Origin: Gemmatimonadales bacterium
GTDB lineage: Bacteria > Gemmatimonadota > Gemmatimonadetes > Gemmatimonadales > GWC2-71-9
Length of the DNA: 50,254 nt
Direction of reading: 5' to 3'
Assembly: GCA_030699545.1 (NCBI GenBank)
Contig: JAUYMC010000128.1
Location: 1-50,254 of the forward strand
Below, piece by piece: positions 5,857 through 43,431 of the stretch. A program made the translations under genes and the position numbers. The notes below the pieces were generated by a model. That model was not told where the DNA came from. It did not search any database and saw only the letters and a list, made by a program, of their open reading frames with translations. How positions within the stretch are numbered: the first letter of the stretch is position 1; the number at the start of each line of letters is the position of its first letter.

Positions 5857-5957
5857 GCGCAGCCTCCGACTGGAGTGAGGACTCTAGGGACCGGTTAGCG
5901 TATCACCCCCTCGGGGCCTCCGCAAGGACGGCCGCGCCGGTGCTACTTTCCGGGCGC

Positions 5958-9625: not shown

Positions 9626-9883
9626 CTACGCGGTGCGTTTGCCCAGAACGCCAGCCTTCTTGAGCAGCGAGCGCACCGTGTCGGTGGGCGTCGCCCCCTT
9701 GGCCAGCCAGGCCAGCGCCTGCTCGGCGTTCACGACAATGACCGCCGGATTGGCGCGGGGATTGTAGTTGCCGATCGTCGCCACGAACCGACCGTCCCGT
9801 GGTGACTTGGAGTCGGCGATGACGATCCGAAAATGCGACTGCCCTTTCCGTCCCACCCGACGCAGCCGAATACGAGTTGCCAT
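9626..9883 (-). CDS. rpsP: 30S ribosomal protein S16
   Basis: MATRIRLRRVGRKGQSHFRIVIADSKSPRDGRFVATIGNYNP is the classic S16 sequence. Confidence 0.95.
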   Translation of the reverse strand: MATRIRLRRVGRKGQSHFRIVIADSKSPRDGRFVATIGNYNPRANPAVIVVNAEQALAWLAKGATPTDTVRSLLKKAGVLGKRTA

Positions 9884-9889
9884 ACGTTG

Positions 9890-20093: not shown

Positions 20094-20205
20094 AGTACGC
20101 CCGGCTGGTGTTGGATGGTGAACTCCGATCGCGGACGCTGACGGCGGGCGCGCGGTGGTTACCGATCCATATGACAGGGGGTGAAGCGAAAAGGTTGCAA
20201 CAGGC

Positions 20206-27530: not shown

Positions 27531-29257
27531 GCATGGCGACGCGGCTGTTCGCGAGCGTCAGCCTGCTCGTGGCGGCCGCGGTGATCGGATCGATCATCGC
27601 CGCGGATCTCGTCCTGCGGCGTCAGCTCGAGGCCGGGTTCGCGGCCGAGCTGGAGCGGGAGGCGCGGCTCGTGGCCGCCGTCGTGCCGGCCGACTCCGCC
27701 GCCTGGCCGGATTTTGCCCGGCACACCGGCAGCCGGCTCGGGCGGCGCGTCACCCTGATCGATGCGAGCGGGCGCGTCCGCGGCGACTCCGAGTTCGACC
27801 GCGCGGCGCTCGCGCGCCTCGAAAACCACGGCCGGCGCGCGGAAATCCGCATGGCGCTCGACGGGGGCGTGGGCACCGACGCACGCCTCAGCGCCTCCAC
27901 CAATGAGCGCCAACTATACGTCGCCGTCCGGATCGACGGTGGGCCGCGTGGCCTCGCCGTCAGTCGCGTCGCGACGTCCCTTGGCGCAGTAAACGCGGCC
28001 GTCCATGGCGTGCAGCGCGCCGTCGCCGTCGTGGGGTTGCTCCTCTTGCTTGCGGCGGGACTGCTTGCCTGGATCCTGTCCCGTGCTCTGGCCCGTCCGC
28101 TCGTCGCGATCGCGGGCGCGGCACGCGAGATTGCGGCCGGCCGTCCCGCGACGTTCCCCGACGTCCGGGTCCCCGAACTGGCCCACCACGTGGACACGCT
28201 CCGCGGCATGCAGCGGGAGCTGGAGACGCGATTCGCGTCGCTCAGCCGCGAGCGGGAGGAGTCCCGCATACTGCTCGAGGCGCTCTCGGACGGCGTCGTC
28301 GCCGCGGATGATCGGGGCGCCATCGTCTCCTGCAACGCGTCGGCACGGCGGCTGCTGGGCTACCGTCTTGAGGAGGCGCTGCCGCCGCTGGCGGCACTGT
28401 TTCACGATCGCCCGCACCGCGCCCTGATCGCCGAGCTGCTGGCGGGTGAGACCATCGAGGGGCATGAGCTGCAGCTCGGCGAGCGCACGGTGCTCGCGTC
28501 GGGACGGCCGCTCGAGGACGGCGGGAGGTTGCTCGTGCTCAACGACGTCACCGACCTGCGCCGGCTCGAGGCGGTGCGCCGCGATTTTGTCGCCAACGTT
28601 TCGCACGAGCTGAAGACGCCGCTGACCGCCATCACCGGATACGCGGAAACGTTGGCGGCCGAAGCGGCGCCCGGCACGCAGGCGGCGGGATTCGCCGACA
28701 CGATCGTCACGCATGCGCGGCGCATGCAGCGCCTCGTGGATGATCTCCTGGATCTGTCCCGCATCGAGTCGGGAAGCTGGCGGCCCGTGACGGAGGAGGT
28801 GCCGCTCGAGACGGCCGCGCAGGACGCGTGGCGTCCGATGGCGGACCGGGCGGCCACCGCCGCTGTGCGGTTGGACGTCGCGATCGCCGCCGATGTCCGG
28901 ACGCTCGAGGCCGACCCCGAGGCGGTGCGCCAGATCCTGACGAATCTCTTCGACAACGCGCTGCGCCACACGCCAGGCGGGGGGACGATCCGGCTCGAGG
29001 CCCGCCGGGCGCGGGGTCGAGCCGCAGGCGTCGAGCTGATCGTGGCCGATAGCGGGAGCGGGATCCCCGCCGAGCACCTGCCGCGCATCTTCGAGCGATT
29101 CTATCGCGTGGACGCCGGCCGGGCTCGGCACCAGGGTGGCACCGGACTCGGCCTGGCGATCGTCAAGCATCTGGTGGAGGCGCATGGCGGCCGAGTCGTC
29201 GCGGAGAGCGCCGTCGGGCGCGGCACGACGATCCGGATACACTTTCCGGACGCCTAG
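27527..29257 (+). CDS. phoR: PhoR-like sensor histidine kinase with ~135-aa extracytoplasmic loop
   Basis: Two TM segments (LFASVSLLVAAAVIGSIIAADLVL and VAVVGLLLLLAAGLLAWILS) bracket a loop. These are followed by a HAMP-like region, a PAS-like region, the HisKA motif VSHELKTPLTAITGYAETL, and HATPase motifs DSGSGIP and GGTGLGLAIVKH. Confidence 0.8.
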   Translation: MSMATRLFASVSLLVAAAVIGSIIAADLVLRRQLEAGFAAELEREARLVAAVVPADSAAWPDFARHTGSRLGRRVTLIDASGRVRGDSEFDRAALARLENHGRRAEIRMALDGGVGTDARLSASTNERQLYVAVRIDGGPRGLAVSRVATSLGAVNAAVHGVQRAVAVVGLLLLLAAGLLAWILSRALARPLVAIAGAAREIAAGRPATFPDVRVPELAHHVDTLRGMQRELETRFASLSREREESRILLEALSDGVVAADDRGAIVSCNASARRLLGYRLEEALPPLAALFHDRPHRALIAELLAGETIEGHELQLGERTVLASGRPLEDGGRLLVLNDVTDLRRLEAVRRDFVANVSHELKTPLTAITGYAETLAAEAAPGTQAAGFADTIVTHARRMQRLVDDLLDLSRIESGSWRPVTEEVPLETAAQDAWRPMADRAATAAVRLDVAIAADVRTLEADPEAVRQILTNLFDNALRHTPGGGTIRLEARRARGRAAGVELIVADSGSGIPAEHLPRIFERFYRVDAGRARHQGGTGLGLAIVKHLVEAHGGRVVAESAVGRGTTIRIHFPDA

Positions 29258-29292: not shown

Positions 29293-29332
29293 GTTACGTG
29301 GTCGTCACATCGGCGTCACCGGCGGTTGACGG
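29293..29332. promoter_or_regulatory. Candidate Pho box: four GT(T/C)AC-type half-sites at 11-bp phasing
   Basis: GTTACGT at 29293, GTCACAT at 29304, GTCACCG at 29315 and a weaker TTGACGG at 29326, each exactly 11 bp apart. They lie between the phoR stop (29257) and the GTG start at 29353. Confidence 0.4.
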
Positions 29333-29352
29333 CCCGGCCGCATCCTTGGGCC

Positions 29353-30480
29353 GTGCGTATCGCGCTCGTGACAGACACCTACACGCCGCAAGTCAACGGC
29401 GTGACGACGGTTACGGACCGCATCGTACGCGTGCTGCGCGCCGACGGCCACGCCGTGGCGATCGTGGCGCCTCGCTACCCCGCAGGACCCGACGCCCGGC
29501 CTGGGGAGTTGCGCATTGCCTCCGCCCCGTTCCCGCCCTACCCGGAGGTCCGCCTGTCGCTGCCGCGGTTCGGGGCGGTCGCCGCGTTTCTCGACGAGTT
29601 TCGTCCTGACCTGATCCACGTGGCGACCGAGGGCCCGATCGGCCTGACCGGTCGGCGCTACGCGGTGCGGCGCCAACTGCCGCTCGTGACATCGTACCAC
29701 ACGAATTTCCCGCAGTACGCCCGGCATTACGGGGCGCGACTGCTGGAGCCGTTGGTGTGGCGCTGGCTCCGCTGGTTTCACGGCCCGGCCCGCCTCACGC
29801 AGACCCCCGGGACGGCGGTCGCCGAGGACCTGACGCGGCGTCGCATCGGGCGGCCGCAGGTGTGGGGCCGAGGCGTGGACATCCGCCACTTCGATCCGGC
29901 GCGGTGGTCCGCGGGATGGCGCCGCTGGCTCGGCGGCGCAGACGATACGGCCATCGTCCTGCATGTCGGGCGTCTCGCGCCCGAGAAGAACCTCGACGTG
30001 CTCGGCGCCGCCTGGACAGCCGCAAAGGCGCGACTCGGACAGCGGGCGACATTCGTCCTGGCGGGCGAGGGGCCAGGCGCCGCGCGACTGCTCACGCGTT
30101 TGCCGTGGGTGCGCCACCTCGGCTTCCTCGATCGGGATCGGCTGGCGGACCTCTACGCGAGCGCCGATCTCTGCATGCTACCCTCCGAAACCGAGACGTG
30201 CGGCCTGGTGGCGCTCGAGGCGATGGCCTCCGGTCTCGCGGTCATCGCCGCCGATGCCGGCGGATTTCGCGAGAGCATCGTGCATGGCGACAGCGGCTGG
30301 CTGGTATCGCCGCGGGATGCCGAAGGCTTCGCGGCAGCGATCATGGCGCTCGTGGCGGCGCCCGCGCGGCGCGCCCAGCTCGGCGCCGCCGCGCGCGTGG
30401 CCGCGTTGGAGCGCGACGTCGCGATCGAGGACCTCGCGCTGATCGAGCAATACGAAGCGGCGGCTCTCTGCGCCGCGTGA
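29353..30480 (+). CDS. GT4-family (GT-B) glycosyltransferase
   Basis: VRIALVTDTYTPQVNGVTTV is an N-terminus typical of GT4 lipid and sugar glycosyltransferases. The C-terminal motif is PSETETCGLVALEAMASGLAVIAADAGG. The GTG at 29353 is preferred over TTG 29326, which lies inside the repeat array. Confidence 0.85.
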   Translation: MRIALVTDTYTPQVNGVTTVTDRIVRVLRADGHAVAIVAPRYPAGPDARPGELRIASAPFPPYPEVRLSLPRFGAVAAFLDEFRPDLIHVATEGPIGLTGRRYAVRRQLPLVTSYHTNFPQYARHYGARLLEPLVWRWLRWFHGPARLTQTPGTAVAEDLTRRRIGRPQVWGRGVDIRHFDPARWSAGWRRWLGGADDTAIVLHVGRLAPEKNLDVLGAAWTAAKARLGQRATFVLAGEGPGAARLLTRLPWVRHLGFLDRDRLADLYASADLCMLPSETETCGLVALEAMASGLAVIAADAGGFRESIVHGDSGWLVSPRDAEGFAAAIMALVAAPARRAQLGAAARVAALERDVAIEDLALIEQYEAAALCAA

Positions 30481-30482
30481 CG

Positions 30483-31286
30483 ATGGTGCTCGCCGACGGG
30501 CTGCGGCCCGACGCGGTCACACGCACGCACATGCCGTCGCTCGACGCGCTGGCGCGGGCGTATACGCAGGCGCTGCGCGCGACGACGGTGCGGCCCAGCC
30601 GGACGGTTGCCGCTTTGGCGTCACTGGCGACCGGGGTGGCTCCGGCGTCCCACGGCCTCATCGAACCCGGGCTCGGGTTTCTGACGAAGCTCACGCGCCT
30701 GCGTCCGCTGGCGCGCGAGCTGAACCGCGCCGGTCTGCCGAGCCGGATCGTCGCCAGCGATCTGTTGTTCAGCGAGCGCGCGGTGGTGCGGGTACTCGCC
30801 GCCGCCGCGGGCGTCACCGGGGTGACCTCGGCGGGCCGCCGCGCGCGCGAAGTCGCCGGCGCGGCATTGGCGGTCCACCAGACGGACGGCGTCCTGTTCG
30901 TGTACCTCAACGACGCGGATCTCGCGGGGCATCTGCACGGGTGGATGTCGCCGCAGTACCTGGAGGCCGCCGCTGAGCTCGACGCGGCCATCGGGGCGCT
31001 CGCGGTACTGGCGGACGACTCGTTGCTGATCGTTCTGGCCGACCACGGTGGCGGCGGCGTGACCTCGCACGATCACGCGGAGCCGCATCTCGTGAACGAC
31101 CGGATTCCGCTGGTGCTGGCGGGCCCCGACGTGACGCGCCGCCACCAGCTCACCGGCAAGGTCTCACTCCTCGATATTCCGCCGACGCTGCTGTGGTGGT
31201 TCGGTCTCGAGATTCCGGTGGCCTACGAGGGCCGGCCGCTGGCGCAGGCGTTTCGGACGGCGGCGCTGGCCGGGGTGGCGGGATGA
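30483..31286 (+). CDS. Alkaline-phosphatase-superfamily enzyme (type I phosphodiesterase/nucleotide pyrophosphatase-like), no signal peptide
   Basis: The real gene is the C-terminal part of ORF 29757..31286. It shows MVLADGLRPD (metal Asp), VRPSRTVAALASLATGVAPASHG (nucleophile Thr context) and VLADHGG. The start lies within 6 nt of the GT4 stop (GTGA/ATG). Confidence 0.75.
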   Translation: MVLADGLRPDAVTRTHMPSLDALARAYTQALRATTVRPSRTVAALASLATGVAPASHGLIEPGLGFLTKLTRLRPLARELNRAGLPSRIVASDLLFSERAVVRVLAAAAGVTGVTSAGRRAREVAGAALAVHQTDGVLFVYLNDADLAGHLHGWMSPQYLEAAAELDAAIGALAVLADDSLLIVLADHGGGGVTSHDHAEPHLVNDRIPLVLAGPDVTRRHQLTGKVSLLDIPPTLLWWFGLEIPVAYEGRPLAQAFRTAALAGVAG

Positions 31287-31711
31287 TGCGCTGGGTCACG
31301 CATTTGGGCGGCGCGCGCGTTACGATCGGGCTCGGGCTCGTCCTGATGGCGGCGGGTGCAGTCCGCCTGGGACTCGCCGCGCTCATCGCGAACCTCGCGT
31401 CGCATCTGGCGGTGCAGGTGCTGAAGCGGACGGTGCGCCGGCCGCGTCCCTGCGACGCCAACGGGCGGGCGCTGGCGCTGGTGGACCTGCCCGATCCGTT
31501 CTCGTTCCCCTCGGGGCACGCCGCGGCGAGCACCGCCGTGCTCGGCACCATCTGTATGCACGAGCCGCTGCTCGCGCCGGTCCTGCTTCCGATCGCGGCC
31601 GTCGTGGGCGCGTCGCGGGTGTTGCTGCGCGTCCACTACGTCGGCGACGTTCTCGCCGGCGCCCTCCTGGGCCTCGCCGGCGCAATCTCCACCGCCGTCC
31701 TCGTTCTCTAA
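31283..31711 (+). CDS. PAP2-family membrane phosphatase
   Basis: MMRWVTHLGG start, with ATGATG overlapping the upstream TGA. The PAP2 motifs are KRTVRRPRP, PSGH and SRVLLRVHYVGD. Confidence 0.85.
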   Translation: MMRWVTHLGGARVTIGLGLVLMAAGAVRLGLAALIANLASHLAVQVLKRTVRRPRPCDANGRALALVDLPDPFSFPSGHAAASTAVLGTICMHEPLLAPVLLPIAAVVGASRVLLRVHYVGDVLAGALLGLAGAISTAVLVL

Positions 31712-31723
31712 GCCGCCACAACT

Positions 31724-31763
31724 GTTACCAGCGTTCGCCATGCGCGTGACGAGATTGTGACAC
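31724..31763. promoter_or_regulatory. Candidate Pho box: GTTACCA / GTGACGA / GTGACAC in 11-bp register
   Basis: GTTACCA at 31724, GTGACGA at 31746 and GTGACAC at 31757. The register slot at 31735 is degenerate. The last repeat ends 43 nt upstream of the TonB-receptor ATG at 31806. Confidence 0.45.
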
Positions 31764-31805
31764 GCGCCGGCGAGACTCCGGTTGTCCCTAACCGTGCAAG
31801 AGACT

Positions 31806-34565
31806 ATGCCTCGCTTCGTGCAAGCTGTGCCGCTGGTGTCCCTCGTTCTCGCGCTCCTGCCGTTTCACCTTTCCGCTCAGCAAGGCACCGGCCGTATCGT
31901 CGGCCGCGCCCTCGACGCGTCGAGCGGGCAGCCGATTCCCAGCGCGCAGGTCACCGTCGAAGGGACGGCGATCACCGCGCTGACGGATTGGTCGGGCCGC
32001 TACACGCTGGACGGCGTCCCCGCCGGCATCTGGACCGTGAGTGCCCGGACGATCGGCTACGCGCCGAAGACGGTCACCGAGGTCCTGGTCCCGGAAGGCG
32101 GTGCGGTGGGTCTCGATATCACTCTCACTGCGGCCGCGATTCAGGTGACGGCGGTGGAAGTCACGGCGCAGGAGGAGCGGGGCTCGGTCGCGCGGGCCCT
32201 GAACGAGCAGCGCAATGCCAGCGGGATCATCAACGCCGTCAGCGCCGAGCAGATCCGGCGCAGCCCAGACTCCGATGCCGGGCAGGTTATGCAGCGCGTC
32301 AGCGGAGTCACCGTGCAGGACGGCAAGTATGTGTTCGTGCGCGGCCTGGGCGAGCGCTACACGACGACATCGCTCAACAGCGCCCGGTTGCCGAGTCCGG
32401 AACCGGACCGCAAGGTCGTGCCGCTGGATTTGTTTCCGGCGGGACTGCTGCAGTCGATCGTGACGTCCAAGACGTTCACCCCGGACCAGCCCGGTGACTT
32501 CTCGGGCGCGCAGGTGGACCTCCGCACGCGCGAGTTCCCGGTCGATCGGATGTTTGTGGTCTCGTTGGCCACGGGCTTCAACGGAGCCGCGCTCGCTCAA
32601 GACGTGGTCGCGGCCCCGCGCGTCGGCACGGAATGGCTCGGGTTCGCCGGAGCAGAGCGTGACATCCCCGCCCTCGCCGAGGCGGCCGGCAACCTCAGCG
32701 GACTGAGCCCCAACGAGCTGAACGACGTTGCCGCGTCGTTCCGCAGCGTATGGTCGCCGTGGACCGAGCGCGCCAAGCCCAACGGCTCATTCGGCCTCTC
32801 GCTGGGCGGCGAGGACATCGTGTTGGGACGGCCGCTGGGTTACGTCGCGTCTGCCAGCTACTCGGAAAGCCAGGAGGTCCGGCGCGACGAGCAGCGTGCC
32901 ACGACGAGCAGCTTCGGAGGCGTGGTCGCGCCGCTCGATACCTCCCGCGGCTCCACCGGTGTCCTCGCCATCCAATGGGGCGGGCTGCTCAACCTGACGA
33001 CGCGCCTCGGAGCGACAACCGCGCTGTCGCTCAACAACACGTTCACGCGGACGGCCGAGAACGAGGCCACCCGCCATTTCGCCTACGACGAAGAGTTCAG
33101 CCCGAATTACGGCGTCTTCGACGTCACGCGGCTCACCTTCGTCGAGCGCACGATGCGGTCGAACCAGCTCCGCGGGGATCACCTCCTGGCCGGTCGCCAC
33201 GCGCTCAGCTGGACGGTGACTTCGTCGGGAGTCTCGCGCTACGAACCCGACCGCTCGGACCTGCGCTACGAGACCGACAGTGCCGCCGGTGGGCGGCAGG
33301 CCACCGCGTGGTTCGGGCAGGCGCGGTCAGCGGTCCGCACGTTCAGCGACCTCAACGAGAATGCGCTCGAGGGTGCCGCGTCGCTGCGGCTCGGCTTCGG
33401 CGCACCCAATCGGCAGTGGAGCGTAAAGGTCGGTGGAAGCTATCGCCGGGTGGACCGGACCGCGGATTCGCGCGCCTTCACCCTCCTCAATCACCCGACC
33501 CAGGGCTTGAGCGACGCCGAGCGCCGGCAACCTGCCGAAGCGATCTTCACGGCCGCCTACGCGCGCGACACCGCCTTCCTGCTCTCCGCCGACGCTCAAG
33601 TGGGACGTTACGCAGCGGACGAAGGTTTGGGCGCCGGCTTTGTGCAGTTCGAAGTGCCGCTCACCGAGCGGGTCCGCGTCATCGGGGGAGCCCGCGTCGA
33701 GCGATGGGCCCTCGATCTGGACTACGCGACCGGAGCTGGGGACACGCTCGTGCTGCGCCGCAATACGGATGTGCTGCCAGCGATCTCGGTTCACGTGAAG
33801 CTGTCCAACGACCAGGCGCTGCGCCTGTCGGCGAGTCAGACCCTGGCGCGTCCGGAGTACCGGGAAATCGCCCGCGTGTACTATCGGGACTTCATTGGCG
33901 GGCTCGACGTCTTCGGTGAGCCGAGCCTCGAGCGATCGCTGATCCGGAACTTCGATGCGCGGTGGGAGTGGTATCCCAATCCCGGGGAATTGATCGGCGT
34001 GAGCGTCTTTGGCAAACAGTTCGACCGGCCCATCGAAAAGGTGATTGTCGGCACCACCGGCGGCGACGCGCTGAGCTACACCAATGCAGACGGGGCCTCG
34101 AGCGTCGGCGTGGAGCTCGAAGTACGCAAACATCTACTGACGCTCGCCGCCGCTCTTGCCCCCTTCAGCGTGTTCGCCAACGCCACCGTGATGCGCAGCC
34201 GGATCCAGCCCGGTTCGGCCAACCTCACCAACGCGAATCGGCCCATGGTGGGCCAGGCCGGTTATGTCGTGAACGGCGGCCTGACCTTCACCGAGGCGGG
34301 GGACCGGGTCAGTACCACCCTGCTCTACAACGTGGTCGGCCGCCGCGTCCGGGAAGCCGGCTCGAGCCCACGCCCCGACACCTACGAGGAGGCACGCCAC
34401 ATGATCGACTTCTCGCTCCAGGCGCCGCTCGGCGCGGGGGTCGCGCTCAAGTTCGATGCGAAGAATCTGCTCGACGCCCCGGTCCACGTCACGCAGGGTC
34501 CCGTCACGCGACACCGGTACACCACCGGTCGGGTGTTCTCCCTCGGCGCCACTTGGCAGCCGTGA
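31806..34565 (+). CDS. TonB-dependent receptor with carboxypeptidase-regulatory-like N-terminal domain
   Basis: The signal peptide is MPRFVQAVPLVSLVLALLPFHLSAQQ. The CarboxypepD_reg-like segment is GRIVGRALDASSGQPIPSAQVTVEGTAITALTDWSGRYTLDGVPAGIWTVSARTIGYAPKT. The plug region is VSAEQIRRSPDSDAGQVMQRVSGVTVQDGKYVFVRGLGERYTTT. A long barrel follows. Confidence 0.9.
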   Translation: MPRFVQAVPLVSLVLALLPFHLSAQQGTGRIVGRALDASSGQPIPSAQVTVEGTAITALTDWSGRYTLDGVPAGIWTVSARTIGYAPKTVTEVLVPEGGAVGLDITLTAAAIQVTAVEVTAQEERGSVARALNEQRNASGIINAVSAEQIRRSPDSDAGQVMQRVSGVTVQDGKYVFVRGLGERYTTTSLNSARLPSPEPDRKVVPLDLFPAGLLQSIVTSKTFTPDQPGDFSGAQVDLRTREFPVDRMFVVSLATGFNGAALAQDVVAAPRVGTEWLGFAGAERDIPALAEAAGNLSGLSPNELNDVAASFRSVWSPWTERAKPNGSFGLSLGGEDIVLGRPLGYVASASYSESQEVRRDEQRATTSSFGGVVAPLDTSRGSTGVLAIQWGGLLNLTTRLGATTALSLNNTFTRTAENEATRHFAYDEEFSPNYGVFDVTRLTFVERTMRSNQLRGDHLLAGRHALSWTVTSSGVSRYEPDRSDLRYETDSAAGGRQATAWFGQARSAVRTFSDLNENALEGAASLRLGFGAPNRQWSVKVGGSYRRVDRTADSRAFTLLNHPTQGLSDAERRQPAEAIFTAAYARDTAFLLSADAQVGRYAADEGLGAGFVQFEVPLTERVRVIGGARVERWALDLDYATGAGDTLVLRRNTDVLPAISVHVKLSNDQALRLSASQTLARPEYREIARVYYRDFIGGLDVFGEPSLERSLIRNFDARWEWYPNPGELIGVSVFGKQFDRPIEKVIVGTTGGDALSYTNADGASSVGVELEVRKHLLTLAAALAPFSVFANATVMRSRIQPGSANLTNANRPMVGQAGYVVNGGLTFTEAGDRVSTTLLYNVVGRRVREAGSSPRPDTYEEARHMIDFSLQAPLGAGVALKFDAKNLLDAPVHVTQGPVTRHRYTTGRVFSLGATWQP

Positions 34566-34597
34566 TTGTCGGTCCACTCAGCTTGGAGACAAGAGCC

Positions 34598-36277
34598 ATG
34601 TCCCTCACGTCCCGTTTTTGGAGGTCTTCCGTCACCGCCTTTGGGTTCGCGGCCGCGCTCGGCGCCTGCGGCGACGACGGCACCGGCCCGCAGCCCGTGC
34701 CCACCCCCACCGGTCTCGCGGTGCAGCAGACCTCGCTCACGTCGGCGAATGTGTCGTGGAGCGCGGTGACCGGCGCCACGAGCTACGTGTTGCAGCGCGC
34801 CGACGCGAACAACCCCGGTGTGTTCGCCGCCATTGGTGGCGCACTCACCGTGACGCAGTACGACGACAACGGCCTCACCGAGGGCCTGGCGTACAGCTAC
34901 CGCGTGGCCGCCGTGCGTGCCGGTGACTCCAGCGCATTCTCGACCACGGTGAACTTCACTTCGGGCCTCAAGGCGGCCACGATCAATGCGAACATCACCA
35001 CGAACCGTACGCTCTACGCGGACACCGTCTACACGCTGAGCGGCTATATCAAGGTGGCGAACGGCGCGACCCTGACCATCGAGGCGGGGACCAGGATTCT
35101 CGGTGATACGGTCGAGCTCGGCAGTTCGCTGTGGGTCCTGCGCGGCGCCCGGATCGAGGCGAATGGCACCGCCACCGACCCGATCGTGTTCACCTCGGCC
35201 CGCGCGCCGGGCAACCGCAAGCCGGGCGACTGGGGCGGCCTGATCATCATCGGCAACGGCATCATCAACCGCACCGGCACCGACATCCGCACCGAGGGTC
35301 CGGCCGAAACGTCCGAGAACTACGCGGGCGGCGACGACAACACCGACAACAGCGGCACGCTGCGCTACGTGCGCATCGAGTTCGCGGGCTACGACGTGTC
35401 GGGGGGCGCCGGCCAGGAGCTCAACGCCCTGTCCAGCTACGCCGTCGGCGGCGGCACCACCTACGAGTACATCCAGGCGATGGCCGGGCTCGACGACTCG
35501 TTCGAGTACTGGGGCGGGGCCGTGGACGGCCGCTACCTCGTGTCCTATGAATCCGGCGACGATCACTACGACGCCAGCGAGGGCTACGTGGGCCGCAACC
35601 AGTTCCTCATCGCACTCCAGCTCCAACGCCTCGTGCCCGCGTCCGGCGCCGGTACCGTCTCGTCCGACCCGCGTGGCTTTGAAATCGACGGCTGCGATCC
35701 AGGCGTCACGGGCTGCACGCTGTCCCCGACTGGAGCCAGCGAGCCATATACCAACGGCACCTTCGCCAACTTCACCGTGATCGGGCCCGGCGACCTCGCG
35801 GGGTTCCCGGCCGACGGGAACGGCGCCGTCATCCGGCGGGGCGCGGGCGGGTTCTGGGCCAACGGCATCCTGGCAGCCTGGAAAGGCACCGCGATCAACG
35901 TGCGCGACGCCTGGACCGACTCGCTGCTCCAGCAGTACGACTCCCTCAATATCCAGGGCGTCCTGCTTGCGCAGAACGGCGCGAATTACGACACGACGTC
36001 GAACTTCGGACAGGCCTCCAAGTTCGCCGGCGACGGCCATGTGACGTATGCGAGCGATGTGCTGGTGGACACGTTGCTGGGCATCAACATCGATCCGGCC
36101 GGGCTCGACTGGACGCCGAAGGCGGGCGCGCCGAGTAACAGCGGCGGCGTCACCGCGCCGGCGGCGCGCGTGGCCGGCTTCTTCGGCGGCACCTGGGTGA
36201 ATACGACGTACCTCGGTGCGGCCGACCCGGCCGGCGCCAAGTGGTGGCTGGGATGGACCGCCTACACCGACAACTGA
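34598..36277 (+). CDS. Lipoprotein with FN3-like domain and large Gly/Asp-rich (possibly beta-helix-like) domain of unknown function
   Basis: The real start is ATG 34598 within ORF 33962..36277, giving MSLTSRFWRSSVTAFGFAAALGAC (lipobox). The FN3-like segment is PTGLAVQQTSLTSANVSWSAVTGATSYVLQRAD...LAYSYRVAAV. Later motifs are GATLTIEAGTRILGD, GDWGGLIIIGNG, DNSGTLRYVRIEFAG and DDSFEYWGG. Confidence 0.8.
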   Translation: MSLTSRFWRSSVTAFGFAAALGACGDDGTGPQPVPTPTGLAVQQTSLTSANVSWSAVTGATSYVLQRADANNPGVFAAIGGALTVTQYDDNGLTEGLAYSYRVAAVRAGDSSAFSTTVNFTSGLKAATINANITTNRTLYADTVYTLSGYIKVANGATLTIEAGTRILGDTVELGSSLWVLRGARIEANGTATDPIVFTSARAPGNRKPGDWGGLIIIGNGIINRTGTDIRTEGPAETSENYAGGDDNTDNSGTLRYVRIEFAGYDVSGGAGQELNALSSYAVGGGTTYEYIQAMAGLDDSFEYWGGAVDGRYLVSYESGDDHYDASEGYVGRNQFLIALQLQRLVPASGAGTVSSDPRGFEIDGCDPGVTGCTLSPTGASEPYTNGTFANFTVIGPGDLAGFPADGNGAVIRRGAGGFWANGILAAWKGTAINVRDAWTDSLLQQYDSLNIQGVLLAQNGANYDTTSNFGQASKFAGDGHVTYASDVLVDTLLGINIDPAGLDWTPKAGAPSNSGGVTAPAARVAGFFGGTWVNTTYLGAADPAGAKWWLGWTAYTDN

Positions 36278-36867
36278 GTTGCTTGGCGGCAGGTCTCGGG
36301 GTCGCGCTGCTCAGCGGCCTCGCGGCCTGCGGGGCGGAGAGCGGCTCCGCCCGTGCGGCGCCGGCGCGAGTGATTGATAGCATCCTGCCGCGGGATGTCG
36401 CGGTGGCCCGCTTTCGCACCGGCGTGCCCGAAGTGACGGCGCTGGCGGGCGGCGCACCGACGCGCGAGGCGTTGGTGCGGCAGTTCGTGGAGGCGTTGGA
36501 ACGGCGGGACACCGCGGGGCTCCGGGAACTGCTGCTGACCCGGGCGGAATTCGCGTGGCTCTATTACCCCACCAATCCCCAGGGCCTCCCCCCCTACGAC
36601 TTGTCGCCGGGGCTGCTGTGGGAGATGTCGTCGCTCAATAGCGCAAAGGGGCTGCGCCGGGCCTTGCAAGAATTCGGCGGCACGTCACTCGGATACCAGG
36701 GGCATGTCTGCGACCCCCAAACGAGTCGTCAGGGGGCGAACACCGTGACGGGCCCGTGTACGGTCCGCCTGTTGCATGGCACGAGCGACAGAGAGGTTCG
36801 GCTGTTCGGCCTCATCGTCGAGCGCGGCGGCCGGCACAAGTTCGTCAGCTACGCCAACAAGCTGTAA
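36253..36867 (+). CDS. Small lipoprotein of unknown function
   Basis: The ATG at 36253 gives MDRLHRQLSCLAAGLGVALLSGLAAC (signal peptide plus lipobox). It overlaps the upstream gene by 25 nt. I recognise no family. Confidence 0.65.
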   Translation: MDRLHRQLSCLAAGLGVALLSGLAACGAESGSARAAPARVIDSILPRDVAVARFRTGVPEVTALAGGAPTREALVRQFVEALERRDTAGLRELLLTRAEFAWLYYPTNPQGLPPYDLSPGLLWEMSSLNSAKGLRRALQEFGGTSLGYQGHVCDPQTSRQGANTVTGPCTVRLLHGTSDREVRLFGLIVERGGRHKFVSYANKL

Positions 36868-36911
36868 GCGACACCCGGCGCCGGTTGCACGGCCGTCGTC
36901 CGGGTGCCAGG

Positions 36912-36945
36912 TAGCCGAGGCCCGCATGGCTCGGCTATCTGCTTT
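36912..36945 (+). terminator. Probable intrinsic terminator
   Basis: The stem is TAGCCGAG (36912-36919) / CTCGGCTA (36930-36937), followed by TCTGCTTTGTT. Confidence 0.5.
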
Positions 36946-36985
36946 GTTACACTCCCGTGACACTGGTGCATCGTCCCGGTGATGC
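36946..36985. promoter_or_regulatory. Candidate Pho box: GTTACAC / GTGACAC / (degenerate) / GTGATGC in 11-bp register
   Basis: GTTACAC at 36946, GTGACAC at 36957 and GTGATGC at 36979, all in 11-bp register. They lie upstream of the porin start at 37047. Confidence 0.45.
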
Positions 36986-37046
36986 GGGCTGGTGAGGTTT
37001 GGGTCGTCGGTGCAGTCCACAATTCAACCCAAGTCTTGAGGAATCC

Positions 37047-38201
37047 GTGCACGCAAGACTGCTGATGGGCGCCCTTGTGCTCGGGGCCGCCCCCGCGCTT
37101 CACGCCCAGGCCCCGAATGTCCGGGTGTCGGGCCGTATGCAGGCGCAGTACCGCCTCTCGTCCGGCGATTCGTCCGGGAACTTCAACCCCGCGCTGGTAA
37201 GTAACGGCTTCGAGATCCGCCGCCTGCGCATCCAGACCGACGTCCGGTTCGGCGACAACATGCTGGCCGTGATCCAACCCAGCTTCGAGATGGGCGGTAT
37301 CCGGATGCGGGACGCGTATCTCCGGGTCGGCCTCACGCCGCAGATCGGCGTCACGATCGGGCAGGAGAAGTCGCCGTTCCAGCGCTACGAGCTCACCAGC
37401 TCGAACACCCTTCCGTCCGTCGAGCGCGGCGTCCGGATCCTGCGGCTGTCGGGTCGCGAAGGCTTGAACGACCTGCTCGCCACCAACGGCTACGCCTCAC
37501 ACGACCTCGGCGCCTTCATGGACTGGACCGGCCCCGAGAACCGGTTCAGCATCAAGCTCGGCGTGCAGAACGGCTCGCGCGAGAGCACGGCCGACGTGAA
37601 CAGCGCCAAGAGCTTCTTCGGCCGCGCCACGGCGACGCTCACAACCAACGCCGCCGACCAGCCCATGCTGCAGGTGGGTGTCTCGCTGGCCGCGCGCGAC
37701 CGCGCCATCTGCTCGACTTGCACCGGCACGATCGCCTACTACGCCGACTCGTCCAAGACGACGACGGCGTTCGGACTCGACCTCGAATGGGGCGGCTTCC
37801 GGCCCGGCTTCCACGTGATCGCCGACTTTGCCACGGGCGACAACGTCCCTGCCGCCAACCGCGTAGCCTCGGGCCGCAACACGGCGAACCTGCGGACCGC
37901 GGCCGACAGCGCGCTGCGGACGTTCATGGGGTTCTCGCTGATCGGCGCCTACCGCGTCAACACCGCGGGCGCCGACACACGCCTCGTGAAATTCTTCGAG
38001 CCCGCGCTGCGGGTGGACTATCTGGACCCCGACACCGATACCGGAGACAATGAAGGAGTCCTGATTACGCCCGCGCTCAGCATCTACTTCGGCAACACCG
38101 TCGTGCTGCGCGCGGGGTTCGATTTCTACAGCTACAGGGACGCCACCGGCACGAGCCGGTCAGCCAAGGAGATCAAGTTCTCCTGGCAGGCGAACTTTTA
38201 A
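37047..38201 (+). CDS. oprP: Phosphate-selective porin (OprO/OprP family)
   Basis: The GTG at 37047 is preceded by GAGGAA. The signal peptide is ...LGAAPALHAQ. FEIRRLRIQTDVRFGDNMLAVIQPSFEMGGIRMRDAYLRVGLTPQIGVTIGQEKSPFQRYELTSSNTLPSVERG matches the Porin_O_P pattern. Confidence 0.85.
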   Translation: MHARLLMGALVLGAAPALHAQAPNVRVSGRMQAQYRLSSGDSSGNFNPALVSNGFEIRRLRIQTDVRFGDNMLAVIQPSFEMGGIRMRDAYLRVGLTPQIGVTIGQEKSPFQRYELTSSNTLPSVERGVRILRLSGREGLNDLLATNGYASHDLGAFMDWTGPENRFSIKLGVQNGSRESTADVNSAKSFFGRATATLTTNAADQPMLQVGVSLAARDRAICSTCTGTIAYYADSSKTTTAFGLDLEWGGFRPGFHVIADFATGDNVPAANRVASGRNTANLRTAADSALRTFMGFSLIGAYRVNTAGADTRLVKFFEPALRVDYLDPDTDTGDNEGVLITPALSIYFGNTVVLRAGFDFYSYRDATGTSRSAKEIKFSWQANF

Positions 38202-38212
38202 GGAGGCTAACC

Positions 38213-39283
38213 GTGAATCGCAGACTGCTCATCACGATCGGTATCGCCGGGGCGCTGGCCTGCGCCCCGCCACCCCCGGTTGCGGCGCAGGTGCGCCTCA
38301 ACGGCGCGGGCGCCACGTTTCCGAACATCATCTATCAGAACTGGATCCTGACGTACAATCAGAAGTTCGACAATGTCGAGATCAACTATCAGTCCATCGG
38401 CTCAGGCGGCGGCATCCGCCAGTTCTCCGAGAAGACGGTCGATTTTGGCGGCAGCGACGCGCCGATGACCGACTCGGCCATCGCGGCGATCGACGGCAAC
38501 GTCCTCCACATCCCCACCGTGCTGGGCGCGGTGGTCGCGACGTACAACCTTCCCGGCCTCGCGCAGGCGGTGCGGTTCACGCCCGACGTGCTCGCTGACA
38601 TCTTCCTCGGCAAGATCACGAACTGGAGCGACGCGCGGCTCACGAGCATCAACCCCGGCGTCACCCTCCCCAATCAGGACATCATCGTCGTGCACCGCTC
38701 CGACGGCTCCGGCACGACGTACGTCTGGGTCGATTACCTGACCAAAGTCAGCCCCGAATGGGCGCGCCGTGTCGGCCGGGGGACGTCCGTGAACTGGCCC
38801 GTCGGCCTCGGCGGCCGCGGCAACGAAGGCGTGACCGCGACCACCCGGCAGACGCCGGGCGCGATCGGCTACGTCGAGCTGGGCTATGCCTTGATCAACA
38901 AGATGCCGGTCGGTGTCGTCCGCAATAAATCGGGCAACTGGATCACGCCGAGCCTCGAGTCGGTGACGGCCGCGGCGGCGGGGGCGATGCGGGACATGGG
39001 CTCCGATACGGACTTCCGCGTGTCGATTACCGATCCGAGCGGCGCACAGGCGTATCCGATCGCCAGCTTCACCTGGCTGCTGGTCCGCAAGCAGTATCCC
39101 GACGCGGCGAAGTCCCGCGAGTTGGTCACGTTCGTCTGGTGGGCCCTGACCGACGGTCAGGCAAAGGCTGCGGGCCTCGGCTACGCGCCGCTGCCCGCCG
39201 CGCTGCGCCCGTGGATCCAGGCCAGGCTCACGACGATCACCGCCGGCGGGCGTCCCGTCTGGACCGGACCCTCGACCCGGTGA
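38213..39283 (+). CDS. pstS: Phosphate ABC transporter substrate-binding protein
   Basis: The GTG start lies 7 nt after AAGGAGG and 11 nt after the porin stop. It shows NGAGATFP, YQSIGSGGGI, HRSDGSGTT and GAIGYVE. Confidence 0.95.
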   Translation: MNRRLLITIGIAGALACAPPPPVAAQVRLNGAGATFPNIIYQNWILTYNQKFDNVEINYQSIGSGGGIRQFSEKTVDFGGSDAPMTDSAIAAIDGNVLHIPTVLGAVVATYNLPGLAQAVRFTPDVLADIFLGKITNWSDARLTSINPGVTLPNQDIIVVHRSDGSGTTYVWVDYLTKVSPEWARRVGRGTSVNWPVGLGGRGNEGVTATTRQTPGAIGYVELGYALINKMPVGVVRNKSGNWITPSLESVTAAAAGAMRDMGSDTDFRVSITDPSGAQAYPIASFTWLLVRKQYPDAAKSRELVTFVWWALTDGQAKAAGLGYAPLPAALRPWIQARLTTITAGGRPVWTGPSTR

Positions 39284-39290
39284 CGCGGTA

Positions 39291-39341
39291 GCCGGTCTCA
39301 CCGGCATCCCCCACCCCCCGTCGCCGGGCGGCGGGGGGGGG
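39291..39341 (+). other. Two GC-rich hairpins in the pstS-pstC intergenic region
   Basis: The first is GCCGGT-CTC-ACCGGC (39291-39305). The second is CCCCCCGTCGCC / GGCGGCGGGGGG (about 39314-39341; one G-U pair and one mismatch). Neither is followed by a U-tract. Confidence 0.5.
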
Positions 39342-39355
39342 CCGTTCCCGGCGCG

Positions 39356-39384
39356 GTGACACATCCGTTACACAATCGTGACGG
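39356..39384. promoter_or_regulatory. Candidate Pho box: GTGACAC-ATCC-GTTACAC-AATC-GTGACGG
   Basis: Three 7-mers with 4-nt spacers sit at 39356, 39367 and 39378. TACAAT at 39404-39409 lies 7 nt before the pstC ATG at 39417. Confidence 0.5.
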
Positions 39385-39416
39385 ACAGCCTCGCTGGGGC
39401 GGATACAATTCCGCCG

Positions 39417-40376
39417 ATGTCGAGTCCCGAGCCTCGCTGGACGCTGCGCGGACCCAATACGGGAGACCGCGCCTACCGGGTGGTGCTGACGGGACTGGCG
39501 CTCGTGTTGCCGCTGCTGATTCTCGTGCTGTTCGCGCAGCTCGTCGTCAGCGCCCTCCCGGCGATCGCGAAGTTCGGACCGTCATTCCTGTGGACGTCCA
39601 CATGGGATCCCGTCGCGGAAGTCTACGGCGCGGCGCCGATGATCTTCGGCACGCTGGCGTCGTCGTTCCTGGCGCTGCTCATCGCGATCCCGCTGGCGGT
39701 GGGGGTCGCGATCTTCCTGACCGAGTTCGCCCCCCGCTGGCTGCGCCAACCCGTGGCCTTCCTGGTCGAGCTGCTCGCCGCGATTCCCAGCGTGGTCTAC
39801 GGACTGTGGGGGATTTTTGTCCTTATTCCGTTTCTGCGCGCGCACGTCGTCCCGCCGCTAAAGGCCGTGCTCGGCTGGACGCCGTTCTTCCAGGGCGCCT
39901 TCTACGGGAACTCCCTCCTCGCCGGCGGAATCATCCTCGCGATCATGGTGGTGCCGTACATCGCGGCCGTGTCGCGGGAAGTGCTGCTCGCGGTGCCCTC
40001 CAGCCAGCGCGAAGCGGCGCTCGCGATGGGCGCCACGCGCTGGGAAGCGGTGCGGTCCGCGGTCCTTCCCTACGGCCGGGCCGGCATCATCGGCGCGATC
40101 ATCCTGGGGCTCGGCCGCTCGCTCGGCGAGACGATGGCGGTCACGATGGTCATCGGCAATCGCCACGACATTGGACTGTCCGCGCTCCAGCCGGCGTACA
40201 CGATGGCGGCGGCCATCGCGAACGAGTTCACCGAGGCCACGACCGACATGTATCTCTCGGCGCTGTTTGAAGTCGGCCTGATTCTGTTCATCATCACGGT
40301 AGCGGTGAACGCGCTGGCGCGGCTGCTCATCTGGCGCGTCGCGCGCGGGGCGGCCGTGGGGAGCCGCGCGCTATGA
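39417..40376 (+). CDS. pstC: Phosphate ABC transporter permease PstC
   Basis: ORF 39378..40376. The ATG at 39417 is preferred because the GTG at 39378 is the third repeat of the array. It is polytopic and carries the EAA-type loop SQREAALAMGATRWEAV. Confidence 0.9.
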   Translation: MSSPEPRWTLRGPNTGDRAYRVVLTGLALVLPLLILVLFAQLVVSALPAIAKFGPSFLWTSTWDPVAEVYGAAPMIFGTLASSFLALLIAIPLAVGVAIFLTEFAPRWLRQPVAFLVELLAAIPSVVYGLWGIFVLIPFLRAHVVPPLKAVLGWTPFFQGAFYGNSLLAGGIILAIMVVPYIAAVSREVLLAVPSSQREAALAMGATRWEAVRSAVLPYGRAGIIGAIILGLGRSLGETMAVTMVIGNRHDIGLSALQPAYTMAAAIANEFTEATTDMYLSALFEVGLILFIITVAVNALARLLIWRVARGAAVGSRAL

Positions 40377-41227
40377 GCATGCCCGCGCGCCAGGTCCGCC
40401 GCCATGCGGTGAACGGGCTCATGACCGGGCTGATCGCGATGCTCTCGGCACTCGCGGTGCTCGCGCTCGTCCTGATTCTCGGCGATCTCATCCTCAAGGG
40501 GGCGTCGTCGCTCAACTGGGCGTTCTTCACGGAGAACCCGGTGCCGGCCGGTGAAACCGGTGGCGGGGTCGCGCACGCGATCGTCGGAACCGCGATCGTC
40601 GTGGGCTTCGCCGCCCTCATCGGCCTGCCGGTCGGCATCGGCGCGGGGTTGTATCTGGCCGAGTTCGGGACGGGGCGTCTGGGATTCTTCGTGCGCTTCG
40701 TCGCGGACGTGCTCAACGGGACGCCGTCCATCGTCGTCGGCATTTTCGCCTGGACCTGGATGGTGAAGCCGGTCGGGCGCTTTTCCGCGCTCGCGGGCAG
40801 CGCCGCGCTCGCCATCCTGATGATCCCGATGATCGCGCGCACGACGGAGGAGATGGTGCGCCTGGTCCCGCATTCCTTACGCGAAGCGGCCCTCGCCCTC
40901 GGCTATCCGCGCTGGCGGACGTCGCTCCGGATCGTGGCCCGCACCGCGCTCGGCGGCATCGTCACCGGCTGCCTGGTCGGCATCGCGCGCGTCGCCGGGG
41001 AGACGGCGCCGCTGCTGTTCACCGCGCTGGGCAACCTGAACTTCTCGGTGTCGCCCACACACCCGATGCAAACGCTGTCGCTCCAGATCTACGTGTACGC
41101 GACCGGTCCATTCGACGAGTGGCACCGCTTGGCGTGGGCGTCGGCGCTTGTGCTGATGGGGCTCGTGCTGCTGCTCGCGATCGCGGCCCGCTGGGTCACG
41201 AGGCAACGGTATGGGACCGGGCGCTAA
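40373..41227 (+). CDS. pstA: Phosphate ABC transporter permease PstA
   Basis: Its start overlaps the pstC stop (ATGA). It is polytopic, with [16 protein letters not shown]. Confidence 0.9.
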
Positions 41228-41987
41228 CGCGCGCCTGCGGCTCGAGACGGTCCGGCTGACCGCGTTGTTCAACGGCCAGCCGGCGGTGCGGGACGTCTCG
41301 CTCCTGTTTCCGGCGCACACGGTGACGGCGATCATCGGCCCGTCCGGCTGCGGCAAGAGCACGTTCCTGCGCTGCCTGAACCGCATGCACGAGCTTTCGG
41401 CGGGCGGCACCGTGCAGGGTCAGGTGCTGCTCGACGAGGTCGACATTTACGCTCGCGACGTCAATCCGGTCGAGCTGCGACGCCGCATCGGCATGGTGTT
41501 CCAGCGGCCAACGCCGTTCCCCACCATGTCGATTTACGACAATGTGGCCGCCGGCCTGCGGGTGAACGGCCGCCGGTCGCGCAGCGATCTCGACACCGCC
41601 GTGGAGCGCGCCCTCGGTCAGGCCGCGCTCTGGGACGAAGTGCGGGACCGGCTGCACACCAGCGCGCTGGAATTGTCGGGCGGCCAACAGCAGCGGTTGT
41701 GCATCGCCCGCGCCATCGCGCCGCAACCGGAGATCCTGCTGCTCGACGAGCCGACGGCCTCGCTCGATCCGGCAGGGACGCAGCGCATCGAGGAGCTGTG
41801 CCACGCGCTGAAGCGGCATTATACGATCGTGATCGTCACCCACAACCTGCAGCAGGCCGCGCGGGTCTCCGACTATACGGCGTTCTTCTATCTGGGCCGG
41901 ATGATCGAGGTGGGGCGCACGGGCGAGCTGTTCACCAAGCCGCAGGTCGAGCAGACCGAGGCGTACATCACGGGCCGGTTCGGATGA
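41211..41987 (+). CDS. pstB: Phosphate ABC transporter ATP-binding protein (copy 1)
   Basis: [17 protein letters not shown] (Walker A), [26 protein letters not shown] and the C-terminal YITGRFG. Confidence 0.95.
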
Positions 41988-42748
41988 GCGCGCATCATCC
42001 CGTCCTGCAGTCGCTCGCCTACAACTTCTGGTACGGCGCCACGCAGGCCCTGTACGGAATCGATCTGGCGGTTCCCCGCCACGCCGTCACCGCCTTGATC
42101 GGCCCGTCGGGATGCGGCAAAACGACGTTCCTGCGGTCGATCAACCGGCTGCACGACCTGACGCCGGGAGCGCGGCACACGGGCGACATTCGCCTGGAAG
42201 ACACGTCGGTCTTCGCGTCGCGATCCGACCCCGTGACGCTGCGGCGCCGCGTCGGCATGGTGTTCCAGCGTCCCAATCCGTTCCCCAAGACGGTGTACGA
42301 CAACGTCGCGTACGGCCCCCGGCTCAACGCGCTGGCGCCCGACCGCGAGCTGCCCGACCGGGTGGAGCGCGCGCTGCGCCGGGCGGCGCTGTGGGACGAG
42401 GTGCGCGACCGGTTGCGGGAGCCCGGGACGTCGCTGTCCGGTGGACAACAGCAGCGCCTGTGCATCGCGCGCGCGCTCGCGAACGAGCCCGACGTGCTGC
42501 TGATGGACGAGCCCTGCTCCGCGCTCGACCCGATCGCGACGCAGCGGATCGAAGAGCTCATCGTCGAGCTCAAGCAGTCGTACACGATCGTGATCGTGAC
42601 GCACAACATGCAGCAGGCCGCGCGCGTCTCCGACTACACGGGATTCTTTTACCTGGGACGGCTCGTCGAATTCGGGCAGACCGAGCAGGTCTTCACCCGG
42701 CCCGCCGACGAGCGGACCGAAGCCTACATCACGGGGAGATTCGGATGA
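41984..42748 (+). CDS. pstB: Phosphate ABC transporter ATP-binding protein (copy 2)
   Basis: The real start is ATG 41984 (ATGA overlap) within ORF 41699..42748. It shows [43 protein letters not shown] and YITGRFG. Confidence 0.95.
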
Positions 42749-43431
42749 GCGGCACGAACCCGACGCACCGCCACTTCCACGAGGAGCTGTCCGCGCTGAA
42801 AGTCACGCTGCTCAACATGTCGGCCGCCGCCCAGGCCGCGCTCGCCGCCGCGGTCGAGGCGGTGTTGCAGCGGGACGACACCAAGGCGCGCGCCGTCATC
42901 GCGGGCGATGCCGACATCGACCACCTCGAGACGGAAGTCGAAGAGACCGTGATCCGGCTGCTCGCCACACAGCAGCCGATGGCGCGCGACCTGCGGTTCC
43001 TCATGGCGGCGATGAAGATCGCCAACGACCTCGAGCGCGTGGGCGATCATGCCGTGAACATCGCCCAATCGGCGGAACGGCTGCTCGCGTCGCGACTCAT
43101 CGTCCCCGTCCCCGAGCTGCTGGAGATGGCGCGACAGGCGCGCATGATGCTCGCCGACGCCCTCGATGCCGTCGTGCGCGGCGACCCGCAGGCGGCGCGC
43201 GCCATTTGCCGTCGCGACGACAGCGTGGACGCCCTGCATCAATCCATGTTTCGTATTCTGCTGACGCACATGATGGAAGACCCGCACATCATCGGGACCG
43301 CCATGGAGCTCTTCCTCGTGAGCCGGAATCTCGAGCGGGTCGCGGACCTCGCCACCAATATCGCCGAGGACGTCGTGTTCATGGTCGAAGGGAAGTCGAT
43401 CAAGCATCACGCCGAAGACCGGCCCGCCTAG
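42745..43431 (+). CDS. phoU: Phosphate signalling complex protein PhoU
   Basis: The real start is ATG 42745 (ATGA overlap). It shows [20 protein letters not shown] and [28 protein letters not shown], with a second repeat ending [16 protein letters not shown]. Confidence 0.95.

Follow-up and report, generated by a model that had tools for sequence, protein, structure and literature searches.

The question raised by this locus is what three consecutive genes, encoding a TonB-dependent receptor (TBDR) and two lipoproteins, do in the middle of a cluster of phosphate genes. They lie on a contig of 50,254 bp from a metagenome-assembled Gemmatimonadales genome; the complete contig is called the window below. 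An earlier note on this DNA had placed the trio between phoBR and oprP-pst-phoU and proposed an undescribed outer-membrane module for phosphorus acquisition. Pfam matches confirm the flanks, with phoB and phoR on one side and an OprP-like porin, pstS, pstC, pstA, two pstB genes and phoU on the other, and the note was right about where the genes of the trio lie, how they are spaced, and where the lipoboxes, the FN3 domain, the repeats and the terminator are (Table 1). Our results indicate that the trio probably forms an uptake module in the outer membrane, controlled by PhoB and of the kind known from ElpS, FI-FII and BT4056. It belongs to an already described kind, and no new kind of system is revealed.

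The word "undescribed" had to be dropped, since comparable pairs have been published three times (PMC2996285; PMC8115612; bioRxiv 10.1101/2023.03.17.533168). The Caulobacter lipoprotein ElpS (CC0170) is made under phosphate starvation, is displayed on the cell surface and is freed by a protease dependent on the type II secretion system (T2SS); it is associated with extracellular phosphatase activity, which rises in the supernatant upon its release, and elpS adjoins the genes of the TBDR CC0171 and of the T2SS (PMC2996285). In Flavobacterium johnsoniae, the TonB-dependent transporter (TBDT) Fjoh_0545 and the pectin-lyase-fold lipoprotein FII (Fjoh_0546) are induced by depletion of inorganic phosphate (Pi) only. 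They are part of the PUSIV/phoBR operon together with glycosyltransferase Fjoh_0541, OprP (0542), PhoR (0543) and PhoB (0544), while PUSIII holds FI (Fjoh_3856) with TBDT 3857; FI and FIII are among the most abundant exoproteins, and FI, FII and FIII are 31–36% identical to ElpS (PMC8115612). BT4056 of Bacteroides thetaiotaomicron, homologous to Fjoh_0546 and ElpS, has been proposed as the lid of the non-SusC transporter BT4055 and is placed on its outer face by AlphaFold-Multimer; homologues of these three lipoproteins adjoin their TBDT in 621 genera (bioRxiv 10.1101/2023.03.17.533168).

The 559-aa lipoprotein encoded by the second gene, for which an exact NCBI entry exists, connects the window with this family. 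Residues ~125–559 form a right-handed beta-helix domain, Pfam PF28492 (Beta_helix_4), as given in the precomputed annotation of the exact protein (P0001), the family being newer than the Pfam library that we scanned; scans of both lipoproteins with Pfam and NCBIfam libraries that predate it returned fn3 alone. A literature search found no mention of PF28492. BLASTP matched the protein to lipoproteins of Sphingomonas (2e-24), Indioceanicola (2e-43), Marinobacter (6e-37) and Pseudoalteromonas (5e-37), and the neighbours of the Sphingomonas and Indioceanicola matches are a TBDR followed by gspN, gspD and gspE, that is, the ElpS type of locus. The beta-helix domain also matches a TBDR-adjacent lipoprotein of Bacteroides finegoldii; comparison of the TBDT-adjacent families of Gemmatimonadota and Bacteroides by hhalign gave a probability of 99.8% (E 5e-30), and PF28492 is present in all 120 best Bacteroidales relatives of the Bacteroides protein. 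The family is large: at 50% identity, 12,176 clusters match the 559-aa protein with E < 1e-3 and 1,640 with E < 1e-30, counts that are inflated by the common FN3 domain, which contributes many of the weak matches and some of those below 1e-30.

The receptor gene predicted in the earlier note is an open reading frame of the expected anatomy, encoding a signal peptide, an N-terminal CarboxypepD_reg domain, a plug and a barrel of the 22-strand type (PF13620, PF07715, PF00593 and PF14905, including the Plug and TonB_dep_Rec_b-barrel models). Over its full length the protein is 26–27% similar (E 1e-56 to 1e-82) to TBDRs of Bacteroides, Sphingomonas, Indioceanicola and Pseudoalteromonas that have a Beta_helix_4 lipoprotein as partner. 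The receptors thus align full-length across phyla, and therefore receptor and beta-helix lipoprotein are co-conserved. Signalling across the envelope by this receptor is unlikely, because it has a CarboxypepD_reg domain instead of a signalling extension and no genes for ECF or anti-sigma factors lie nearby.

Conservation was examined in 85 related loci, onto which the proteins of the window's Pho cluster were mapped; 80 came from a scan of species-representative genomes, all its matches being from Gemmatimonadota, and 5 loci were added to these. The cultured species Gemmatimonas aurantiaca and G. phototrophica carry orthologues (for example L034). The TBDR gene is upstream of the beta-helix gene in 81 of these 85 loci. 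Among the 45 Gemmatimonadota loci with at least 8 kb of flank on both sides (full-flank loci), the trio is intact in all 45, and phoB/phoR or pst genes lie within 10 kb in 34 (76%). Two Bacteroidota loci, one from Mangrovibacterium diazotrophicum (L092 and L093), show the order pstA-pstB-phoU-phoB-phoR-TBDR-Beta_helix_4. Linkage of homologues to loci unrelated to phosphorus is thus not consistent, and the phoBR/pst linkage predominates in Gemmatimonadota and is also seen in Bacteroidota. The phosphorus context claimed in the earlier note is strongly supported by the invariant trio, the pho linkage and the conserved upstream repeat described below.

The window contains five matches to the motif GTKAC-N6-GTKAC, where 0.25 would be expected, and none of 100 shuffled sequences reached five. 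All five sites (29304 on the minus strand, 31746, 36946, 39356 and 39367) are intergenic within the Pho cluster or at a gene start; they precede the glycosyltransferase operon, the TBDR gene, the porin gene and, twice, pstC. It had been claimed that the repeats before the receptor gene recur before oprP and pstC with an 11-bp phase. The recurrence is borne out by the matches at 36946, 39356 and 39367. Before the receptor gene the exact match covers 31746–31761, and GTTAC at 31724 is in phase with it, but the intervening position, 31735, holds no repeat.

When the scan was extended to the other loci (forward strand, within ~300 nt upstream of the TBDR start), GTKRC-N6-GTKRC was found in 63 of 75 Gemmatimonadota loci, with ~0.03 expected per region, including 10 of the 11 full-flank loci that are not linked to pho genes. 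The same motif stands upstream of pstC, pstS and oprP across the 85 loci. A Pho box shows itself as direct repeats with an 11-bp period in front of genes of the Pho regulon, and this is the arrangement found here; on this basis we regard these repeats as a candidate phylum-wide Pho box. The Pho-box unit of E. coli, CTGTCAT, differs from the GT(G/T)AC unit of these loci. It should be noted that in 35 related loci the beta-helix gene itself has a Pho-box-like repeat in the 350 nt before it, as in L009, where it occupies positions 9882–9897 between the TBDR and beta-helix genes; the 32-nt gap of the window has no such repeat. Because of this position, the repeat suggests that in those loci the lipoprotein may be regulated separately, as reported for Caulobacter elpS versus cc0171.

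The spacing and domains of the 559-aa protein agree with the earlier description. The 32-nt gap after the receptor gene contains a GGAGA Shine-Dalgarno sequence before the ATG at 34598, and the FN3-like domain (fn3, residues 36–118, E 3e-6) and the motifs GDWGGLIIIGNG, DNSGTLRYVRIEFAG and DDSFEYWGG are all present. The cysteine of the lipobox LGAC, Cys24, is invariant across 75 homologues and is followed by C-(S/G)-D-D in ~65% of them (C-G-D-D in the window protein). We take this motif to resemble the surface-export signal of Bacteroidota lipoproteins; the homologues and the acidic motif after the cysteine suggest that the protein may be exposed on the cell surface.

The AlphaFold2 model (pLDDT 87, pTM 0.81) has an N-terminal FN3 domain and, after it, a right-handed beta-helix. 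In a Foldseek search with the full-length model, FN3 domains dominated the matches and the beta-helix matches were generic; the best structures extending beyond FN3 were Yersinia exopolygalacturonase 2uve (E 1.5e-6, identity ~11%) and pectate lyase PelI 3b4n, both built of FN3 and a beta-helix, with low TM-scores (0.15–0.20). The structural match is to a generic pectin-lyase-type beta-helix and gives no hint of an unrelated function. When the PDB was searched by sequence, only FN3 matches came back, and no GH28 polygalacturonase or pectate lyase model in Pfam matched the protein, the likeness being at the level of the fold only. Residues conserved family-wide include an acidic ladder on successive rungs (E274, D299, D300, D321, D322, D325 and E362) as well as N391 and W212, and the C-terminus carries a conserved W-x-G-W-T motif.

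The longer motif Y-x-G-A...W-x-G-W-T is repeated at Beta_helix_4 domain boundaries in proteins with two or more tandem copies of the domain (P0121–P0270; loci L002 and L003). Examples are proteobacterial lipoproteins of 900–1400 aa adjoining TBDRs and proteins of 1000–2000 aa from other lineages, many of which end in what we presume, as a guess, to be type IX secretion sorting signals.

The third gene overlaps the second by 25 nt, as proposed: it starts with ATG at 36253 and encodes a 204-aa lipoprotein with the lipobox LAAC, the cysteine of which, Cys26, is invariant across 64 homologues. It is directly downstream of the beta-helix gene in 45/45 full-flank loci. We found 526 homologues, and all those with a named source come from Gemmatimonadota, mostly Gemmatimonadales. 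No Pfam domain was found in the protein, and the acidic C-(S/G)-D-D motif is absent from it. The AlphaFold2 model (pLDDT 86.7) has an alpha+beta fold, for which the best matches in a PDB fold search were NTF2-like and non-significant (E 0.035). The NCBI annotation of this gene (P0279, 165 aa) is truncated at the N-terminus, so that signal peptide and lipobox are missing from it; the homologues are mostly ~200 aa long and start with a conserved MD. The terminator expected after the third gene is probably a strong hairpin followed by GCUUUGUU, a short U tract. The region 36868–36950 folds with a free energy of −45.4 kcal/mol (z = −3.2), and this hairpin was overlooked by a simple terminator scan.

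The probable uptake function can be described as follows. Under Pi limitation, phospho-PhoB would bind the 11-bp-phased GTKAC repeats and switch the operon on. The 559-aa lipoprotein would be lipidated and exported to the surface, where its beta-helix groove, with the acidic ladder and N391, would capture, and possibly trim, a phosphorus compound exceeding the size limit of OprP; acting as a lid or capture subunit, the lipoprotein would pass the compound to its partner TBDT. As this compound, the earlier note had suggested an organophosphate, a condensed phosphate or mineral-bound P. Orthophosphate would then be freed in the periplasm by the products of neighbouring genes (the phosphodiesterase, the PAP2 phosphatase and the 5'-nucleotidase) and taken in by PstSCAB. 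The small NTF2-like lipoprotein may be an accessory particular to this lineage that probably faces the periplasm. In this scheme the gene anatomy, the family assignment by homology, the invariant trio, the pho linkage and the conserved promoter motif are directly supported.

Several observations weigh against this assignment. Eleven of the 45 full-flank loci have no pho genes nearby, and the gut Bacteroides pair is likewise not adjacent to pho genes. The link of the Gemmatimonadota members to ElpS, Fjoh_0546 and BT4056 runs through proxy homologues, a shared Pfam family and published statements of homology. For the model organisms, a preprint of September 2026 states that the function of Pus3 and Pus4 is difficult to predict from their content (10.64898/2026.09.03.749221). 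The predicted BT4055–BT4056 complex has few high-confidence contacts and no fitness phenotype was seen (bioRxiv 10.1101/2023.03.17.533168). Finally, Caulobacter cc0171 is reported to be constitutive, and ElpS is shed and tied to phosphatase activity (PMC2996285); an enzymatic or accessory role therefore fits ElpS as well as a lid does. The modelled fold and acidic ladder are compatible with a passive lid, an enzyme or cation binding alike.

The 11 unlinked loci have another neighbourhood in common, in which, for example, a gene for a GAF-PAS kinase precedes the trio and one for a NosD-like protein follows it. In L001, L008 and L009 (at ~12.4–14 kb in each locus), a gene of the NosD/Beta_helix family is convergent with the trio just 3' of it, and a GAF-PAS hybrid histidine kinase gene is upstream.

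The picture of the beta-helix protein as mainly an enzyme, either surface-bound or shed, is unlikely in our estimate and is the alternative that deserves most attention. The substrate of such a depolymerase or esterase would be a phosphorylated polymer of anionic character, for example teichoic acid, phosphoglycan, polyphosphate or nucleic acid outside the cell, and the TBDR would import the fragments, much as "selfish" polysaccharide utilisation loci work, here with phosphorus as the gain. Pectate lyases and polygalacturonases have this fold, the FN3 plus beta-helix architecture is shared with 2uve and PelI, conserved Asp/Glu residues recur on successive rungs ~22 residues apart (DD 299–300 and DD 321–322), and genes for a periplasmic phosphodiesterase, a PAP2 phosphatase and a 5'-nucleotidase lie alongside; moreover, supernatant phosphatase activity increases on ElpS release (PMC2996285), and FI and FII rank with the most abundant Flavobacterium exoproteins when Pi is depleted (PMC8115612). 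However, no glycoside hydrolase or lyase Pfam model matches, the family lacks a conserved basic residue such as pectate lyases have, and the fold-match TM-scores are low. A version in which all three proteins cooperate is less probable. Here, a surface depolymerase would attack an abundant anionic phosphopolymer of soil, for example teichoic acid, polyphosphate or phosphoglycan, the TBDR would import the oligomers, and the lineage-specific NTF2-like protein would be a new and obligatory partner, either taking up the cargo or gating it; if true, this would tell what the Beta_helix_4/TBDT family, which is very widespread, transports.

Metal chelates are the classical cargo of TBDRs, and import of a metal or its chelate (Ca, Fe or Zn) for the metallophosphatases of the Pho regulon, with the acidic ladder binding the cation, is a minor and quite improbable rival. 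It would account for the many invariant acidic residues, and the neighbouring phosphodiesterase and 5'-nucleotidase come from metalloenzyme families; ElpS, although it is not recognisable as a phosphatase, also stimulates alkaline phosphatase activity (PMC2996285). Yet no siderophore, metallophore or Fur/Zur-type genes were seen in the conserved neighbourhoods examined, and the Flavobacterium loci are responsive to Pi only and tightly repressed under Fe and N limitation (PMC8115612). The pectin-lyase-type fold, together with the missing pho genes in the unlinked loci and in gut Bacteroides, could also be read as an uptake pair for a glycan or other carbon source that came by chance into the Pho cluster of this contig. 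We disfavour this and consider it very improbable, as pho genes are linked to the pair in at least two phyla, the Pho-box-like repeat persists in 10 of the 11 loci without such linkage, and no carbohydrate-active enzymes or sugar transporters are conserved beside the pair. We reject incidental genomic placement in view of the linkage in both Gemmatimonadota and Bacteroidota and of the repeat kept in unlinked loci.

Among the known systems, Flavobacterium PUSIV has almost all of the gene set proposed here as an uptake module: it likewise combines phoBR, a glycosyltransferase, OprP and a TBDT (CarboxypepD_reg-like domain, plug and barrel) with a pectin-lyase-fold lipoprotein directly 3' of it, and in Flavobacterium the whole set responds with strong induction to Pi depletion only. 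The Gemmatimonadota protein differs in its extra N-terminal FN3 domain and the unit in the small NTF2-like lipoprotein restricted to its lineage, and the cluster adds pstSCABB-phoU, an NPP-type phosphodiesterase and a PAP2 phosphatase. With Caulobacter it shares a lipoprotein gene adjoining a TBDR gene, ElpS being induced by phosphate starvation and surface-exposed; in Caulobacter, however, the order is reversed, with the lipoprotein first, the locus is linked to the T2SS, whose protease frees ElpS, the FN3 domain and the third lipoprotein are missing, and the TBDR is reported as constitutive. In BT4055/BT4056 the order is again TBDT, then lipoprotein; BT4056 is of the pectin-lyase superfamily and is predicted to sit on the outside of the barrel. 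PF28492 is common to the Bacteroides and Gemmatimonadota families, but the gut Bacteroides pair adjoins a GAF/HisKA kinase gene instead of pho/pst genes, and the Bacteroides lipoproteins are shorter (~400 aa) and lack FN3.

The resemblance to SusC/SusD and PusC/PusD of Bacteroidota is one of logic, as the earlier note had put it for SusC/D: a TonB-dependent barrel works with a substrate-capturing surface lipoprotein, and PusCD is also Pho-regulated. The lipoprotein here is a beta-helix, in contrast to the alpha-helical SusD, the 204-aa lipoprotein is weakly NTF2-like, and the barrel lies outside the SusC subfamily. The SusD models (PF07980 / PF14322) matched neither lipoprotein, and the SusC/RagA model TIGR04056 scored 33.4 bits on the TBDR, against a cutoff of 368, over the N-terminal domain only; these two results rule out membership of SusCD.

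The pair is widespread, and family members are among the most strongly induced and abundant proteins of phosphate-starved model bacteria. To this our data add that in Gemmatimonadota, an abundant soil phylum, the pair is near-universal and tightly Pho-linked; they also provide a candidate Pho-box motif for the phylum and identify a third lipoprotein as a conserved partner. The FN3 domain, the invariant, weakly NTF2-like third protein and the phylum-wide candidate Pho box appear to be lineage-specific or newly noted. The pho linkage, the motif and the third partner together strengthen the case for this family as a core route of phosphorus acquisition, and the search for the cargo gains comparative handles in the acidic ladder, the third gene and the FN3 domain.

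Table 1. Positions of the trio and of the surrounding Pho-cluster features in the window.
Feature	Position	Strand	Basis or detail
Candidate Pho box before TBDR gene	31724..31761	+	GTTAC 31724, GTGAC 31746, GTGAC 31757
TonB-dependent transporter (TBDR), 919 aa	31806..34565	+	Pfam, signal peptide
559-aa FN3 + beta-helix lipoprotein	34598..36277	+	Lipobox, fn3, PF28492, AlphaFold2 model
204-aa third lipoprotein	36253..36867	+	Lipobox LAAC (Cys26), AlphaFold2 model, homologues
Stem-loop then GCUUUGUU, probable terminator of the trio	36908..36941	+	RNA fold
phoB	26799–27530	+	Pfam Response_reg + Trans_reg_C
phoR	27527–29257	+	Pfam PAS + HisKA + HATPase_c
Pho-box-like repeats before GT4 gene	29293–29319		Repeat scan
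GT4 glycosyltransferase	29326–30480	+	
NPP-type phosphodiesterase	~30483–31286	+	
PAP2 phosphatase	~31286–31711	+	
Pho box before OprP-like porin	36946–36961	+	Repeat scan
OprP-like porin, pstS, Pho box (39356–39382), pstC, pstA, pstB, pstB, phoU	within 36946..43431	+	
Na+-dependent nucleoside transporter + 1042-aa double 5'-nucleotidase	21039–26754	minus	Divergent, upstream of phoB

A Pho supercluster surrounds the trio in the window (Table 1). The 1042-aa protein consists of two metallophosphoesterase/5'-nucleotidase modules, and a 5'-nucleotidase gene occupies the same place upstream of phoB in many related loci. Since the nucleoside transporter and 5'-nucleotidase genes are divergent from phoB and the position of the latter enzyme is kept, this arrangement suggests that nucleotide scavenging belongs to the same supercluster. 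The order glycosyltransferase-phosphodiesterase-PAP2 phosphatase is also found in two other loci (L007 and L010).

Elsewhere on the contig, at 2881–5883 and 17517–20270 (both on the minus strand), are genes for another outer-membrane barrel protein of ~1000 aa (CarboxypepD_reg + OMP_b-brl_4) and for a 917-aa DUF5916 protein, with no obvious partner lipoprotein for either. The two pstB paralogues are in tandem (41211–42748) between pstA and phoU, an arrangement kept across Gemmatimonadota loci. Downstream of pstS (39284–39420), a G/C-rich hairpin is followed by GTGAC at 39356, GTTAC at 39367 and GTGAC at 39378, in 11-bp phase, and then by a −10-like hexamer, TACAAT, at 39404–39409; because of this arrangement, pstC seems to have a Pho promoter of its own. 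The program-called GTG start of pstC at 39378 overlaps the repeats, and the in-frame ATG at 39417 is the likelier start, with a transcript that is possibly almost leaderless.

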